This document shows positions 5,802-20,796 of a stretch of 21,918 nucleotides of DNA, in pieces. Below the pieces are notes generated by a model that was not told where the DNA came from, made no database searches, and was given only the letters and a program-made list of their open reading frames with translations. Position 1 is the first letter of the stretch; every line of letters begins with the position of its first letter. This DNA is from a virus (lineage: Duplodnaviria; Heunggongvirae; Uroviricota; Caudoviricetes): positions 1 to 21,918 of the IMG/VR virus record IMGVR_UViG_3300008113_000307; one strand, written 5' to 3'. The position numbers and the translations under genes are program-made.

Positions 5802-6390
5802 TAAGATTCTAAAGTTTGAACAAGAACTAGCTGAGTTCACTGGCGCACCTTATGCGGTCATGACCGATTGTTGCACACATGCTATCGAACTGTGCTTGCG
5901 ATATGATTGCGTGACTGAGTGTAGTTTTACGCCTTACACTTATCTCAGTGTCGCCATGACCATGCACAAACTGCGTATTGATTATCGGTATCACGAACAC
6001 GAATGGCAACGCTGGATTGGAGAATATCCGTTTGTGGGCACCAGAATCTGGGACAGTGCTCGACGCCTGGAACGAAACATGTATCGAGCCGGTACCATGC
6101 AGTGCTTGAGTTTTGGACATTCTAAGCCTTTACACATAGGCCGTGGAGGTGCTATACTGTTGGATGACCCAGTGGCATATCACGAGATACTTTTGCAACG
6201 CTATGATGGTCGCGATCTAAATATCACACCATGGTCTCAACAACAAACATTCAGAGTTGGATATCACTACAAGCCCACACCAGAAGAAGCAGAACTAGGT
6301 TCCGCACTGCTGCAGGGCATACGAGAAAATCCACCCGAGCCCCGATTTGTTGAGTATCCAGATTTACGAACCATCACTATCAAGGACTAA
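5794..6390 (+). CDS. Short DegT/DnrJ/EryC1/StrS-like PLP-dependent aminotransferase
   Basis: FEQELAEFTGAPYAV...CTHAIEL, WDSA (PLP Asp), LSFGHSKPLHIGRGGAIL (PLP Lys); only 198 aa. Confidence 0.75.
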   Translation: MFDKILKFEQELAEFTGAPYAVMTDCCTHAIELCLRYDCVTECSFTPYTYLSVAMTMHKLRIDYRYHEHEWQRWIGEYPFVGTRIWDSARRLERNMYRAGTMQCLSFGHSKPLHIGRGGAILLDDPVAYHEILLQRYDGRDLNITPWSQQQTFRVGYHYKPTPEEAELGSALLQGIRENPPEPRFVEYPDLRTITIKD

Positions 6391-6391
6391 A

Positions 6392-7042
6392 ATGACAGAT
6401 AAAAATCAAACAGCACTAGACGCCATGGCTGGCGACGGCGGCTACGGTCTGGCCAAAGCATGCGATCATCTTCGCTTTAAATTCAAGCGTGACGGGAAAC
6501 GTTTCTGGGCTGGCGATAACATTAGCGAATACATCAGCAAGGGCACAGCTCGACGCTTGGCCAAGATGTACTTTAATGAAATAATGGCAGGAAGATATGA
6601 ACCAGCACCAGACGCAACAGCATTTCCCAACGATTCGGCAGACCGTTACGAAGGTATGTTGGTGGTACGTAGTGAGTTGCGCTCTATGTGCAGTCATCAT
6701 CATCAGCCCGTTAGCGGTGTCGCTTACATTGGCATCATCGCCGCAGAAAAACTTATTGGTCTTAGCAAGTACACTCGTATTGCTCAGTGGTGTGCTCGCC
6801 GCGGTACCTTACAAGAAGAACTAGCCAACGATATTGCTCGTGAGATACAGAATGCCACCGATGCCCGAGATGTAGGAGTTTACATACAGGCGGTGCATGG
6901 CTGCTGTGAGAATCGTGGCATCATGGCACACTCCAGCCTCACACAGACCACTGTGCTAAAAGGTGCGTTTAAATCTGATCCTGGTGTGAAAAAAGAATTC
7001 TTTGACAACATCAAACTGCAACAGGACTTTGCTCCACGATGA
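6392..7042 (+). CDS. folE: GTP cyclohydrolase I (FolE), apparently lacking part of the N-terminal helical region
   Basis: TARRLAKMY, SMCSHHHQP, IGLSKYTRI, LQEEL, HGCCENRG. The likely start is ATG 6392 after AAGGA. Confidence 0.92.
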   Translation: MTDKNQTALDAMAGDGGYGLAKACDHLRFKFKRDGKRFWAGDNISEYISKGTARRLAKMYFNEIMAGRYEPAPDATAFPNDSADRYEGMLVVRSELRSMCSHHHQPVSGVAYIGIIAAEKLIGLSKYTRIAQWCARRGTLQEELANDIAREIQNATDARDVGVYIQAVHGCCENRGIMAHSSLTQTTVLKGAFKSDPGVKKEFFDNIKLQQDFAPR

Positions 7043-7467
7043 CACAGCCATTACGCGATGATCTCATGGTGCAACAACAATTGCCGGCGCAGAATGAATG
7101 GATCCGGAGTTGGCAGCACATGGTGGCTGTGATCATGCTGAACCAGACCGGAAGGAAACCAGTCAAAACGGTGCTGCCCATGTTCTTAACAAGATGGTCA
7201 TCGCCTCAGCAATTTCTCATCGCCCAGAAAGATGATGTGCGTGATGTTATCTGGAGTCTGGGCATGGTCAATCGACGATATGAACGACTGTGTAAGATGA
7301 GTGTGAATTTTTTAGAATGGGACGGTGAAGATGCCAGCAAGTTGTATGGCATAGGAAAGTATGGATCCGACTCATATGAAATATTTTTCAAACAGAACTA
7401 TGCAGTAGTGCCCACTGACAAAGAACTCAAACGATATTTGGAAGAAGAAGTGTATGGATTTGTATGA
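7039..7467 (+). CDS. HhH-GPD DNA glycosylase, MBD4-like catalytic domain
   Basis: WQHMVAVIMLNQT...LGMVNRR...LYGIGKYGSDSYEIF, matching the HhH motif and catalytic Asp pattern of MBD4-like glycosylases. Confidence 0.75.
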   Translation: MTQPLRDDLMVQQQLPAQNEWIRSWQHMVAVIMLNQTGRKPVKTVLPMFLTRWSSPQQFLIAQKDDVRDVIWSLGMVNRRYERLCKMSVNFLEWDGEDASKLYGIGKYGSDSYEIFFKQNYAVVPTDKELKRYLEEEVYGFV

Positions 7468-7849
7468 AGCACAGAAATCAGGTATTGCACCCTGGGATCA
7501 AACAGTTGTAGAACTCAGTGACTTTCATGTGGCGGTGTTTCGTGACCGATTTCCGGTCACTCGCGGTCACTTGTTGTTTGTGCCTAGATTCAATACTCCT
7601 GGAGTAATCCGAGACTGTTTTGAATCTGCCATGGCCGAAGGCAACCGAATGGTCTCTGCCGGCCAATGTGATGCATTCAATGTGGGCATGAATTGTGGTA
7701 CTGCAGCCGGACAGACCGTGATGTATCCGCATGTGCACATGATTCCAAGACACCGCAATGATTGCGGGGATCCTGTGGGTGGTGTTCGGGCAGTGATTCC
7801 GGGGCAGGCCAACTACAAAACCGACACCTATCAACAGCCCGATAAATAA
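7454..7849 (+). CDS. HIT-family nucleotide hydrolase
   Basis: DRFPVTRGHLLFVP and FNVGMNCGTAAGQTVMYPHVHMIPR (histidine-triad region). Confidence 0.88.
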   Translation: MDLYEAQKSGIAPWDQTVVELSDFHVAVFRDRFPVTRGHLLFVPRFNTPGVIRDCFESAMAEGNRMVSAGQCDAFNVGMNCGTAAGQTVMYPHVHMIPRHRNDCGDPVGGVRAVIPGQANYKTDTYQQPDK

Positions 7850-7855
7850 TGATCC

Positions 7856-7918
7856 AGCGGTCTCCGGCTCATCCCGCTATACAAACTCTGCTGCCTATGC
7901 TATAATCAACATAGGAGA
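7856..7918 (+). promoter_or_regulatory. preQ1-I-like riboswitch candidate with an anti-SD hairpin, upstream of queD
   Basis: P1 AGCGG(7856-60)/CCGCT(7874-78), loop ending CATC, A-rich tail ATACAAAC, then hairpin CCTATG(7894-99)/CATAGG(7910-15) overlapping SD AGGAGA(7913-18). Preceded by ATAAATA at 7842-48. Confidence 0.6.
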
Positions 7919-7923
7919 ATTAA

Positions 7924-8427
7924 ATGGCAAATCAACCAAGACAATACAAATACACTTCAACCAAGGAGTATCACGATGCTTTTCCCTGCGCTTATCGCCA
8001 ATGGCGTGCTGATAGTCACTGTAATCTCATTCATGGTTATAGTTTTAGTATGAAGTTCTACTTCGGCACAGACGACCTGGATGTGCGCAACTGGGCCGCT
8101 GACTACGGCGGGCTCAAAGAACTCAAGGGCATCTTGGAAGACCAGTTTGACCATACACTTTTGGTCAGTGCTGATGATCCTGAACTGGCAACGTACCAAC
8201 TGTTGCAGGAGAAAAAGTTGGCCAAACTGACTATTCTGCCTAGACTGGGTTGCGAAGGACTGGCTGACATGCTTTACAAATATGTCAACGGTGTTTACAT
8301 TCCTGACATGTGGGGACAGTCTGAAGCCGATCGCTTGTGGTGTTATCGTGTGGAAGTGCGTGAAACACAAAGCAACATGGCATTCCGTGAAGGACATCGT
8401 GAATGGAACGAGGACTTGTTTGCATGA
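7924..8427 (+). CDS. queD: 6-carboxy-5,6,7,8-tetrahydropterin synthase (PTPS/QueD)
   Basis: FPCAYRQWRADSHCNLIHGY, DYGGLKELK, FDHT, VEVRET; SD AGGAG upstream. Confidence 0.9.
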   Translation: MANQPRQYKYTSTKEYHDAFPCAYRQWRADSHCNLIHGYSFSMKFYFGTDDLDVRNWAADYGGLKELKGILEDQFDHTLLVSADDPELATYQLLQEKKLAKLTILPRLGCEGLADMLYKYVNGVYIPDMWGQSEADRLWCYRVEVRETQSNMAFREGHREWNEDLFA

Positions 8428-9287: not shown

Positions 9288-9672
9288 AATTTATCCACAG
9301 ATGCTGCTGGTATCTGTGTTGTCGGCCAACACTACAGAGTCTCGTGTGGATGCAGCAGGCACAGATGAAATCCTACAGGCCAGCCTGTTGAGATTACCAC
9401 AGGGCAAGACCATTGCACCACACAAACATCTTTTGCAGTTTCGCAACACACAGGGCACATGCGAAGCCTGGGTGGTGATATCTGGCACTTTGCAAGCCCA
9501 GGTGTTTGATGTTGACAACACCGTGGCAGACACTGTGACGTTGTCAGCAGGAGACTGTATGGTGTTGTATCGTGGCGGTCACAACTTCACAGTGGTGTCT
9601 GAGGACGCTGTGATCTATGAAATCAAAAACGGACCATACTATGGTGCTGTATTTGACTCGGAGAAAATCTAA
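9265..9672 (+). CDS. WbuC-like cupin-fold protein
   Basis: PHKH...E cupin motif 1, GGHNF motif 2, YEIKNGPY. Confidence 0.7.
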   Translation: MTQKIHSKIYPQMLLVSVLSANTTESRVDAAGTDEILQASLLRLPQGKTIAPHKHLLQFRNTQGTCEAWVVISGTLQAQVFDVDNTVADTVTLSAGDCMVLYRGGHNFTVVSEDAVIYEIKNGPYYGAVFDSEKI

Positions 9673-10244
9673 TGCGAGCCGTGGTATTTGGATCCACAGG
9701 TGGTATTGGTGCTTGTGTTAGTCGACAGTTGACTCAACAAGGGCATACTGTGGCAGGGGTCAACCGATCCCAATTGGACTGTGTAGGCGAAGCGTTTGAA
9801 CAAGAGATTTCCAACATTATCTCTCAGACCGAACCTGACTGGATATTCAACTGCATTGGTGTGCTGGGCAACAATCAAAGTGACTATCGTTCGGTATTTG
9901 ATGCCAACTTTGGTAGTGCCTGGGCTATTGTGCGGCATTACATTGAACATCCTGATCAAGCAGTTAAAATCATGCTGACCGGAAGTGCTGTGCACAATCA
10001 ACCCCGACGTAATCTGGTGTTGTATGCTGCCAGCAAGTCAGCACTTCACAACATGTGGCAAAGCACCGAAGACATATTTGCCGGAACCAATGTTCATATT
10101 GCCCTGGTTCATCCGCCCCGAGTCAACACCGCCATGCTGAATGGAAGACCGGGTGCCAGTCTGGAACCAGAATACGTGGCACAGGTCATGATAGACTTGA
10201 CACGCACAATGAAAAGCCGTACACTACTAGAACTAGGAACTTAA
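9672..10244 (+). CDS. Short-chain dehydrogenase/reductase
   Basis: VFGSTGGIG Rossmann motif and YAASK catalytic motif. Confidence 0.85.
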   Translation: MRAVVFGSTGGIGACVSRQLTQQGHTVAGVNRSQLDCVGEAFEQEISNIISQTEPDWIFNCIGVLGNNQSDYRSVFDANFGSAWAIVRHYIEHPDQAVKIMLTGSAVHNQPRRNLVLYAASKSALHNMWQSTEDIFAGTNVHIALVHPPRVNTAMLNGRPGASLEPEYVAQVMIDLTRTMKSRTLLELGT

Positions 10245-10246
10245 CA

Positions 10247-11221
10247 ATGAAAACAGCATTTATCACAGGCATCGCAGGGCAAGACGGCAGCTATTTGGCC
10301 GAGCACCTGTTGGCACAGGGCTACAGAGTCACTGGCATTATCCGACGAAACTCCACAGTAGAACACCAGAAGGATCGCATTGGCAACTTGCCAGTGGAAG
10401 TGGAGTACGGTGACCTTACTGATCAAAGCAGTCTGGAACGTGCCTTGCGTTTGTACCAGCCAGATGAAATCTACAACTTGGGTGCACAAAGTCATGTGCG
10501 TATTTCTAGTGACATTCCACAGTTTACAGCACAGGTCAATGCACTTGGCGTGATCAACATGCTGGAAGCTTATCGAACTGTGGTACCCGAGGCACGGTTT
10601 TATCAAGCCAGTTCTAGCGAGATGTTTGGTAGCAGTGTGGATGCTGACAACTACCAGCGTGAGACCACTCCCATGCGTCCTGTCAGCCCTTATGGTTGTA
10701 CCAAGGTGTTTGCCTACAACATGGTGCATCATTATCGCAAGGCTTATCGACTGCATGCCAGCAACGGCATCTTGTTCAATCACGAAAGCCCACGACGTGG
10801 TTCAAACTTTGTGACCAACAAAGTGGTCAAGGGTGCTGTGGAAATTGCCCTGGGCTTGAGCCGGCAGTTGGAAATGGGCAATATGGACAGTTATCGAGAC
10901 TGGGGTCACAGTTCAGACTATGTGCGAGCCATGCACATGATTGTACAACAAGACAACCCCGACGACTTTGTGGTGTCCACTGGTGTCACTCGTTCAGTAC
11001 GTGACATGTGTGAGTATGTGTTTGGTCGTCTTGGACTGAATTATCAAGACCATGTGGTTCAGAATCCTAAATATCTTCGTCCAGAAGAACTGCCTTACCT
11101 GCGTGGGGACAACACCAAGATCACTACTGAACTTGGATGGAAGCCCACATATACGTTTGAAGCCTTAATGGACGAAATGATTGAGCACTGGCAGCACATC
11201 TACAAGCAAAAGGAAGCATAA
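10247..11221 (+). CDS. gmd: GDP-mannose 4,6-dehydratase
   Basis: AFITGIAGQDGSYLAE, PDEIYNLGAQSHV, FYQASSSEMFG, SPYGCTK, LFNHESPRRG, RDWGH. The true start is ATG 10247. Confidence 0.95.
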   Translation: MKTAFITGIAGQDGSYLAEHLLAQGYRVTGIIRRNSTVEHQKDRIGNLPVEVEYGDLTDQSSLERALRLYQPDEIYNLGAQSHVRISSDIPQFTAQVNALGVINMLEAYRTVVPEARFYQASSSEMFGSSVDADNYQRETTPMRPVSPYGCTKVFAYNMVHHYRKAYRLHASNGILFNHESPRRGSNFVTNKVVKGAVEIALGLSRQLEMGNMDSYRDWGHSSDYVRAMHMIVQQDNPDDFVVSTGVTRSVRDMCEYVFGRLGLNYQDHVVQNPKYLRPEELPYLRGDNTKITTELGWKPTYTFEALMDEMIEHWQHIYKQKEA

Positions 11222-12066
11222 TGAAACTCAAAGTAAGCGAACTATTTTATTCAGCACAAGGCGAAGGACGGTATGTGGGTGTGCCCTCAGTGTTCTTGAG
11301 AACATTTGGCTGCAACTTTACTTGTTCAGGATTTGGATGCAAGCCAGGCGAGAAGAGCACCGAAGCAGACGAAGTGGCCAAGACTGTAGAACTGTACAAG
11401 ACTTTTGAAGAACTACCCCTGGTGGCCACAGGCTGTGACAGTTATGCCAGTTGGCACCCAGACTTCAAACATCTCAGCCCCACATACACCCCACAGGACT
11501 TGGCTGATCGTATGACAGCACTGTTGCCCAACGGTGTGTGGCAACAGCCCAATGGCAACCCTGTGCACCTGGTGATCACCGGAGGCGAACCGTTGCTGGG
11601 CTGGCAACGTGCCTATCCCGAACTGTTGGATATCTTGGCTGAACGAGGTCTGCGGCACATCACATTTGAAACCAACGGCACCCAAGATCTTACGCCAGAC
11701 TTTAAACAGTATCTAGCCAACTGGTTTGGTGAGATCACTTTCAGCGTCAGTCCCAAACTGAGTGTGAGTGGTGAATCTTGGTCAGATGCTATCAAGCCCG
11801 ACGTGGTCTGGGACTACGAATCTTATGGTGTGACCTATCTCAAGTTTGTGGTAGAAAAGCCACAAGACTTTGATGAACTGGATCGTGCTGTGGCCGAGTA
11901 TCGCAGTCGCGAGTTTGCTGGTCCTGTGTTTGTGATGCCCGTGGGCGGTGTGGTGTCAGTTTACAACGGCAACCGAATCAATGTAGCTGACGAAGCACTT
12001 AAACGTGGCTACTGGTACAGTCCTAGACTTCACGTGGACATCTGGGGCAATGGCTGGGGCAAGTGA
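11221..12066 (+). CDS. queE: 7-carboxy-7-deazaguanine synthase (radical SAM)
   Basis: SELFYSAQGEG, VFLRTFGCNFTC, GCDS, VITGGEPLL, ETNGT, SVSPKL, SPRLHVDIWG. Confidence 0.92.
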   Translation: MKLKVSELFYSAQGEGRYVGVPSVFLRTFGCNFTCSGFGCKPGEKSTEADEVAKTVELYKTFEELPLVATGCDSYASWHPDFKHLSPTYTPQDLADRMTALLPNGVWQQPNGNPVHLVITGGEPLLGWQRAYPELLDILAERGLRHITFETNGTQDLTPDFKQYLANWFGEITFSVSPKLSVSGESWSDAIKPDVVWDYESYGVTYLKFVVEKPQDFDELDRAVAEYRSREFAGPVFVMPVGGVVSVYNGNRINVADEALKRGYWYSPRLHVDIWGNGWGK

Positions 12067-19990: not shown

Positions 19991-20548
19991 ATGATATGTC
20001 CTCATTGTTCAAAAGAATTTACCAGCAAGATTGGGTATTCTAATCATGTTCGTCGGTGTCCTAAAAATCCTAATAGGATTCACGAAGGCCTAACAGACGC
20101 TGGTAGAGAAAGAATACGGCAAGCAACTGCAGACAGAAACAAAGTCAACTTTTCTAATTCTGAATTTAGAAAAAAACACAGAGAATCAATGAAGCGGGCA
20201 GTTTTATCAAATCCTGAATCGTATAGTTCTTCTAATAGAGGGCGGACAAAACAGATTATTGTTGATGGTATAAAACTGCAAGGGCAATGGGAAGTAGATT
20301 TTTACTTATGGGCAAAAGAAAAAGGATTACAACCACAACGACCAACTGAAGCATTTAAATATGTCTGGAATGGGGAAAGGTGGTATCACCCTGATTTTTA
20401 CATCAAATCAATGGATTTGTATGTTGAAGTAAAAGGTTATGAAACTGAAAGAGATAGAGCCAAATGGTCGCAATTTCCCAAAAAGTTGTGTATAATAAAA
20501 TCTGCAGAGATAAAGCAAATTAGACAAGGGTGTTTTGAGCGACTTTAG
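19991..20548 (+). CDS. Putative free-standing homing endonuclease (Zn-finger plus PD-(D/E)XK domain)
   Basis: CPHC...HVRRC Zn-finger-like start, basic linker, YHPDFY...YVEVKG (PD-EXK); AT-rich and adjacent to tRNA genes. Confidence 0.72.
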   Translation: MICPHCSKEFTSKIGYSNHVRRCPKNPNRIHEGLTDAGRERIRQATADRNKVNFSNSEFRKKHRESMKRAVLSNPESYSSSNRGRTKQIIVDGIKLQGQWEVDFYLWAKEKGLQPQRPTEAFKYVWNGERWYHPDFYIKSMDLYVEVKGYETERDRAKWSQFPKKLCIIKSAEIKQIRQGCFERL

Positions 20549-20610
20549 CATAGCGGTAGTGCCGAGAACTCATAATTCTTACGGGACTGGTTCGAATCCA
20601 GTAGGTCGCA
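20539..20610 (+). tRNA. tRNA with CAT anticodon (elongator Met or Ile2); CCA not encoded
   Basis: Acceptor GCGACTT/AGGTCGC, D stem GCAT/GTGC, anticodon arm GAGAA-CTCATAA-TTCTT, T arm ACTGG-TTCGAAT-CCAGT; the 3' end reads A-CAA. Confidence 0.88.
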
Positions 20611-20629
20611 CAAAACATCTTTATAAATT

Positions 20630-20704
20630 CTGGCGTTCGTTCAACGGATAGGACAAGACTCTTCTAAAGTCTTTATGGGGGTTCGATTCCCTCACGCCGG
20701 ACCA
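20630..20704 (+). tRNA. tRNA-Arg(TCT)
   Basis: Acceptor CTGGCGT/ACGCCGG, anticodon arm AGACT-CTTCTAA-AGTCT, T loop TTCGATT, encoded ACCA. Confidence 0.93.
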
Positions 20705-20710
20705 GGCAAT

Positions 20711-20796
20711 GCGACTGTGACGGAATGGTATACGTAATTGACTTAAAATCAATCGCCCGAGAGGGATTGAGGGTTCAAGTCCCTCCAGTCGTACCA
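20711..20796 (+). tRNA. tRNA-Leu(TAA)
   Basis: Acceptor GCGACTG/CAGTCGT, anticodon arm ATTGA-CTTAAAA-TCAAT, long variable arm, T arm GAGGG-TTCAAGT-CCCTC, encoded ACCA. Confidence 0.93.

Follow-up and report, generated by a model that had tools for sequence, protein, structure and literature searches.

Small H-type riboswitches bind their ligand at the junction of the two helices P1 and P2 (PMC11625349), and the class I preQ1 riboswitches (preQ1-I) are the described members closest to the RNA considered here. In preQ1-I the cytosine that confers specificity is located directly 5' of the P1 3' strand and is preceded by U in type I and by A in types II and III, and a conserved U (U6), the first base of loop L1, contacts the ligand (PMC11625349). 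Examples for types I to III are B. subtilis queC, T. tengcongensis and C. antarcticum (PMC11625349). No description of a riboswitch or related motif in front of phage queD genes was found in the literature searched.

To our knowledge few riboswitches are known in phages, and we know of none that controls the 7-deazaguanine pathway. Other phage leaders nevertheless offer points of comparison. In phage T4, translation of genes e, soc and 49 is reportedly controlled by hairpins that sequester the ribosome binding site (RBS) and that contain nested promoters, and the pseudoknot in the leader of T4 gene 32 is said to nucleate binding of the gene's own product, a single-stranded-DNA-binding protein, and thereby to bring about autogenous control.

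Organization of the queD leader

The stretch of DNA analysed, hereafter the window, comprises the first 21.9 kb (21,918 nucleotides) of an IMG/VR virus record of 130.7 kb. A gap of 74 nt separates the stop of a HIT-domain ORF (7849) from the ATG of a queD-like gene (7924), and a first-pass annotation had proposed that this gap harbors a preQ1-I-like riboswitch exerting feedback control on queD. Its observation of a structured queD leader is confirmed: the sequence quoted, the 5-bp P1, the A-rich tail, the hairpin covering the Shine-Dalgarno (SD) sequence and the ATAAATA element are all found where they had been placed. The features are as follows.

6347-7042: folE, upstream of the leader
7039-7467: HhH-GPD glycosylase-like gene, between folE and the leader
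7454-7849: HIT gene, between folE and the leader, ending at the leader gap
7842-7848, plus strand: ATAAATA, putative late-type promoter element with a predicted start 1-3 nt before P1
7856-7860, plus strand: P1 5' strand AGCGG, pairing with 7874-7878
7861-7865, plus strand: L1 UCUCC, consensus N-C-U followed by 0-7 variable nucleotides
7866-7871, plus strand: P2 5' strand with distal GGC (7866-7868), unpaired U7869 and proximal CA (7870-7871)
7872-7873, plus strand: L2 UC, with the invariant C7873 directly before the P1 3' strand
7874-7878, plus strand: P1 3' strand CCGCU
7879-7888, plus strand: L3 AUACAAACUC, A-rich with invariant alternating A's, then YUC; consensus WUAYAAAYUC
7889-7895, plus strand: P2 3' strand with proximal UG (7889-7890), unpaired C7891 and U7892, and distal GCC (7893-7895)
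7894-7915, plus strand: anti-SD hairpin of CCUAUG (7894-7899) and CAUAGG (7910-7915), its first two C's being the last two bases of P2
7878-7906, plus strand: predicted embedded sigma70-like promoter with TATACA (7878-7883), a 17-nt spacer, TG (7898-7899) and TATAAT (7901-7906)
7913-7926, plus strand: SD sequence AGGAG (7913-7917) and start codon ATG (7924-7926)
7924-8427, plus strand: queD-like gene of the PTPS family, 167 aa, first gene of the putatively regulated unit

The queD-like gene is followed by genes for a glycosyltransferase-like protein, a WbuC cupin, an SDR protein, gmd and a QueE-like radical-SAM protein (11221-12066). Within this region (9672-11221) the SDR ORF (9672-10244) and the listed gmd ORF (GTG at 10055) overlap by 190 nt in different frames. 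Since the match to GDP-mannose dehydratase begins only at residue 69 of the listed ORF, the true gmd start is probably near 10241. Searching the whole window with Rfam at the gathering cut-off yielded three tRNAs and nothing else. These tRNA genes, one of which has a long variable arm, are located at 20539-20793 at the start of a tRNA island, and a permuted alpha-type tmRNA follows them at the window end.

Distribution of the motif and its link to queD

For comparison, viral contigs were searched with the QueD-like protein (591 relatives found, of which the best 80 were fetched), and a covariance model was constructed from 46 distinct leaders (alignment A1). Of the 81 loci retrieved by QueD similarity, 78 have the element in front of a queD-like gene, one of these leaders being cut by the contig end, and pattern scans of IMG/VR added about 190 further copies in front of queD-like genes. 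When the pattern made no assumption on P1, at least 112 among at least 119 matches in IMG/VR had P1 strands complementary to each other and a QueD homologue no more than 1.5 kb away, and a second, targeted pattern found P1 together with a downstream QueD homologue in 75 of 89 matches. As the downstream QueD proteins of the pattern-scan loci are 33-94% identical to the protein of the window, the link of the RNA to queD persists even where the proteins have diverged deeply. All of six phage records, one of them a complete 364-kb genome with terminal repeats, contain a single copy, always in front of the queD unit. The comparison of relatives thus shows that the element is real and supports a conserved, structured and cis-acting RNA at the 5' end of the phage queD transcription unit and, judged from the aligned leaders, several hundred related phages keep the pseudoknot through compensating base changes.

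All relatives found are uncultured phages, and no close relative was found in cultured phages; in Dinoroseobacter phage R5C no leader precedes queD, which is translationally coupled. A 19-base pattern matched 15 times in species-representative bacterial genomes, about as often as expected by chance. The one true motif among these matches, likewise in front of queD, comes from a phage-like contig of 8 kb that had been binned in a Chitinophagales MAG, and this one strict pattern revealed no cellular home for the motif in these genomes.

In a few relatives the motif is followed first by another gene, which encodes a SAM methyltransferase, a cupin or a second PTPS/QueD of the canonical kind (L042:2118-2948, L177:4617-5339, L170:6409-6750, L182:6747-7172), and then by the gene for the 167-aa QueD-like protein. 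The inserted methyltransferase, cupin and PTPS genes are hints to further steps of the regulated pathway.

Covariation defines an H-type pseudoknot with an extended P2

The minimum free energy (MFE) of the leader alone, -14.6 kcal/mol versus -13.9 +/- 2.8 kcal/mol for shuffled sequences (z -0.26), is no better than chance. The AGCGG/CUGCU pairing preferred in the single-sequence MFE structure was rejected because the tail remains UCUGC when P1 changes. In the relatives, P1 is paired in 100% of the 46 distinct sequences, both partners have changed at three of the five pairs, and eight P1 types occur among 147 distinct aptamers. For P1 and P2 together 88.5% of the cells of alignment A1 are paired, as compared to 73.9 +/- 1.3% after shuffling, and the covariation score is 0.378 versus 0.143 for shuffled alignments; none of 500 shuffles reached 0.378 and slid registers stayed at or below 0.078. 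In distal P2 all five pairs change on both sides. When the register of P2 was set by the flanking conserved motifs and not by complementarity, 83% of the positions were paired versus 53 +/- 4% in permuted sequences, and for the 147 distinct aptamers 77% versus 51.5 +/- 2%. Covariation of P1 and P2 in related queD leaders had been put forward as a test of the first-pass annotation, and both helices covary.

The proximal part of P2 consists of C7870 and A7871 paired with U7889 and G7890, and this CA in the loop and UG in the tail covaries to CG and CG; in the protein-fetched set all sequences with CG in the loop have CCGC in the tail. The pair between what would otherwise be L2 and L3 is A-U in at least 112 motifs, G-C in 75, A.C in one and G.U in none (targeted scans filtered for P1 and queD). 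The covarying CA/UG step implies that P2 is one helix of 7-8 bp, composed of five variable pairs, a U.C mismatch (146 of 147 aptamers) and then C-G and A-U or G-C. In the window only three distal pairs are formed (G7866-C7895, G7867-C7894, C7868-G7893), and distal P2 is slipped by one nucleotide relative to most relatives, giving a 1x2 internal loop, an arrangement also found in L243 and L314. The extended P2 with its covarying CA/UG step and the slipped register of the window were not part of the earlier description. Of the two pseudoknot registers considered there, GGC (7866-7868) with GCC (7893-7895) matches the covarying one, whereas CGGC with GCUG would consume the invariant UCUGC and was rejected. 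Likewise, the loop does end in CAUC, as had been stated, but it is not all loop, given the pairing of C7870 and A7871 in P2.

The unpaired nucleotides are also constrained, and L1, L2 and L3 each contain invariant ones, as is usual for ligand pockets. L1 starts with UCU in 64, CCU in 53 and ACU in 28 of the 147 aptamers; its first base varies (U 64, C 54, A 28), and the second and third, C and U, are invariant or nearly so. L2 reads UC in 125, AC in 7, CC in 6 and UUC in 6 of them, is 2-3 nt long and always ends in C, the base before this invariant C being U in at least 131, A in 7 and C in 7. A base triple between the C-U of L1 and the CA/UG step was considered and rejected, as L1 is unchanged when A-U becomes G-C. 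By comparative analysis the leader between 7856 and 7895 is an H-type pseudoknot with a 5-bp P1, an A-rich L3 and a 7-8 bp P2 with one internal mismatch.

Comparison with preQ1-I riboswitches

Like preQ1-I, the phage leader is a small H-type pseudoknot at the 5' end of an mRNA of the queuosine/7-deazaguanine pathway. Also shared are a P1 of 5 bp in which invariant G-C pairs close the helix (AGnGG/CCnCU), an A-rich L3 beginning with AUA or UUA and, immediately 5' of the P1 3' strand, an invariant C, which mostly follows U as in type I and in some aptamers A. Moreover, translation is predicted to be controlled through P2, as in preQ1-I. The preQ1-I-like architecture proposed for the leader was therefore borne out, and by its likeness to the specificity cytosine of preQ1-I the invariant C7873 may be regarded as a candidate ligand-pairing base.

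Assignment to preQ1-I itself did not hold. Rfam 15 gave no match, neither at the gathering score nor at E<=10, for slices of 211 nt and 51 nt and for 20 related loci. The check with the Rfam preQ1 covariance model, which had been suggested together with the original proposal, did not recognize the leader: a search of the phage's own genome with RF00522 (gathering score 39 bits) listed matches down to 8.4 bits and none of them at 7853-7897, whereas the preQ1-I of Fictibacillus, used as positive control, scored 31.1 bits. In contrast to the conserved U or UU at the start of L1 in preQ1-I, the phage L1 starts with N-C-U; L2 comprises 2-3 nt instead of 4-6, and L3 has an extra YUC. P2 is 7-8 bp long with a CA/UG (or CG/CG) step and a U.C mismatch instead of 3-4 bp, and its 3' strand is complementary to the SD sequence or the AUG whereas in preQ1-I it is the SD sequence itself, so that the predicted response is ON and not OFF. 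Finally, the phage motif was found only in uncultured phages. The leader thus appears preQ1-I-like in architecture without being a catalogued member of preQ1-I.

Promoter-like elements around the aptamer

Of 67 distinct upstream flanks, which otherwise cannot be aligned, about 60 have TAA[AG]TA at a distance of 10-23 nt from P1, and several relatives have TTGACA-16/17-TATAAT at this site instead. In the window as a whole ATAAATA is not enriched (three occurrences versus 1.9 expected). The proposal of a late-type element adjoining the aptamer is in agreement with its position just upstream of P1 in most relatives, and a function as promoter would fit this position. With a promoter-like element immediately upstream of P1, the RNA appears to sit at the 5' end of the transcript.

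A second promoter-like element overlaps the leader itself. Across 41 distinct platforms of the window's type (type A, see below) TAnnnT is retained in the hairpin loop, its two T's without exception, and the remaining bases of the loop differ. Transcripts from this predicted sigma70-like extended -10 promoter could start near 7913 and would bypass the switch. As in T4 e, soc and 49, a hairpin hides the SD sequence and contains a promoter-like element, the transcripts of which would lack the 5' arm of the hairpin. Unlike in these T4 genes, the nested element is sigma70-like and the upstream one late-like, and the 5' arm is shared with a covarying pseudoknot.

Three expression platforms and the predicted direction of the putative switch

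How could the pseudoknot influence translation of queD? Three platform designs are found among the leaders. In type A, to which the window belongs, the last two C's of P2 are the start of the CCUAUG/CAUAGG hairpin, by which the GG of the SD sequence is masked; of the pairs of this hairpin only the sixth varies among the relatives, from G-C to A-U or G.U. In types B and C it is the AUG region that pairs with the P2 3' strand and a few bases after it, examples being UGUCAUC/GAUGGCA and UGCCAUUG/CAAUGGCA. When the 5' half of the aptamer was omitted from the folding, the SD sequence or the AUG was hidden in the MFE structure of 203 of 204 distinct leaders. The P2 3' strand provided at least three of the RBS-hiding pairs in 196 of them. 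The shuffle control for the RBS pairing is weak, as 142 of 204 P2-shuffled leaders still pair.

Since the P2 3' strand is at the same time the anti-SD or anti-AUG strand, the pseudoknot and sequestration of the RBS are mutually exclusive, and from these pairings we infer that stabilization of the pseudoknot should open the RBS, that is, act as an ON switch in vivo. This applies to all three platform types and argues against the feedback switch originally proposed, which would be OFF. Features generally looked for in riboswitch candidates are found together in this leader: covarying helices, invariant unpaired bases, a consistent link to one gene and a platform that competes with the aptamer. 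In the reading that we favor, locking of the pseudoknot would free the RBS so that queD and the genes behind it are translated, and, when the pseudoknot is not locked, the sequestering helix would form and translation would be off. Most likely the lock would be a small molecule resembling guanine, 7-deazaguanine or a pterin, and the invariant C adjoining P1 would read it. We assign a probability of roughly 0.6 to the reading that the leader is an H-type pseudoknot aptamer in which ligand-locked P2 frees the RBS and turns translation ON.

Part of the leader has a possible counterpart elsewhere in the genome. Just beyond the window, at G000:C1:22326-22369 on the minus strand (L083:1380-1590), there is a hairpin with a tail behind it. 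The tail shares 15 bases with the L3-P2b stretch of the window's queD leader and up to 20 with relatives, and is followed by AACUUGCU, which type-B platforms also contain, and by an intrinsic-terminator-like stem with a U run. The element is located between the permuted tmRNA and the tRNAs with no ORF evident, and the complete 364-kb relative retains it with 78% conservation over 149 nt. Possible explanations are a small RNA akin to the leader and a promoter segment common to both sites. A weaker second match to the covariance model (23 bits), in the same genome and just beyond the window, is not a second aptamer.

Candidate ligands and the pathway

The invariant C beside P1 suggests, by analogy, a ligand with a guanine-like face such as 7-deazaguanine, guanine or a pterin like the QueD substrate. 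Among the 119 motif loci listed, FolE was found at 52, the QueE-like gene at 49, an R5C-like QueC at one and an R5C-like TGT at none. In five related phage records, among them the complete 364-kb genome, searches revealed no QueC (PF06508) and no protein of the TGT/DpdA type (PF01702). This extends to these records the earlier remark that the window encodes no preQ0/preQ1 enzyme and makes a ligand other than preQ1 a fair suspicion. The pathway seems to stop at CDG or to branch from it. The queD-like protein matches Pfam PF01242 (1.3e-14) and the PHROG family QueD-like (3.9e-36), and reaches 31.8 bits with the NCBIfam QueD model, the cut-off of which is 89. The region of the metal site in this protein (7924-8427) reads CNLIHGY and not the usual C-x3-HGH. 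Judged from its sequence, the protein may not be a standard CPH4 synthase.

ON control of a biosynthetic gene is unusual and has no settled rationale here; as a speculation, an ON response would fit induction by a substrate or precursor better than feedback by an end product.

Alternative explanations

A pseudoknot that is real could also act without sensing a metabolite, either bound by a phage or host protein or as a ligand-free element that sets the fraction of open RBS through its folding kinetics, temperature or Mg dependence. The covariation data would fit any factor that stabilizes the pseudoknot, no Rfam riboswitch matches the leader, and the predicted ON response of a biosynthetic gene lacks an obvious metabolic logic. 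T4 gene 32 is the generally known precedent for such a mode of action: as there, an H-type pseudoknot is located in the leader of a phage mRNA and translational control is predicted, but nothing suggests that an enzyme of the PTPS family binds RNA. The motif, moreover, stays with queD in clades of 33-94% identity and in very different phage backbones, which is the usual signature of a link to a metabolite rather than to a phage-specific protein and speaks against an element of this kind, as does the clustering of the invariant bases at the P1-P2 junction, the ligand site of small H-type riboswitches (PMC11625349). On balance we consider control without a metabolite the less likely reading, though not a remote one. 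An ordinary class I preQ1 riboswitch through which preQ1 or preQ0 represses queD in classical feedback would account for the 5-bp P1 with AGnGG/CCnCU, for the UC before the P1 3' strand, for the A-rich L3 and for the location in front of a gene of the queuosine-pathway type. It is difficult to reconcile with a score below 8.4 bits for RF00522 where Fictibacillus reaches 31, with no match at E<=10 on 51 nt, with the variable first base of L1, with a P2 of 7-8 bp that has a CA/UG step and does not contain the SD sequence, with a wiring that points to ON and with five related phage records in which no gene of the QueC or TGT families was found, and is thus highly improbable.

Could the conservation reflect signals in the DNA only, with overlapping late and sigma70 promoters being kept and the RNA folds being incidental? 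The TATACA-17-TGcTATAAT arrangement at 7878-7906, the TAnnnT kept in the type-A loops and the upstream TAAATA would be explained in this way. Promoters cannot explain the compensatory changes in P1, in P2 and in the L2-L3 pair, and L3 is equally conserved in types B and C, which have no -10 element at the right spacing, so that hardly any weight is left for this explanation. Returning to the ligand-locked aptamer, we tentatively propose, at slightly less than even odds, the more specific version of a riboswitch class confined to phages, with a fold derived from or converged on preQ1-I and a ligand other than preQ1, by which translation of the first committed enzyme would be activated. Its ligand might be a precursor or intermediate of the pathway (dihydroneopterin triphosphate, CPH4, CDG, 7-deazaguanine) or a host signal in the form of a purine or queuosine precursor.

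Implications

Among uncultured large phages the motif, about 40 nt in size, is abundant; it is missing from Rfam 15 and from the literature searched, and its structure is well defined by covariation. If a ligand is found, the leader would represent a new aptamer or a new ligand pair on the smallest riboswitch fold known. Since no gene of the QueC or TGT families was found, the identity of the ligand would also help to reveal the product of FolE, QueD and QueE. If the proposed mechanism is true, an H-type pseudoknot would serve for ON control, which is rare, the preQ1-I-like structural family would have its first ON switch, and phages would gate a nucleobase-modification pathway, the synthesis of 7-deazapurines, by sensing a metabolite during infection.
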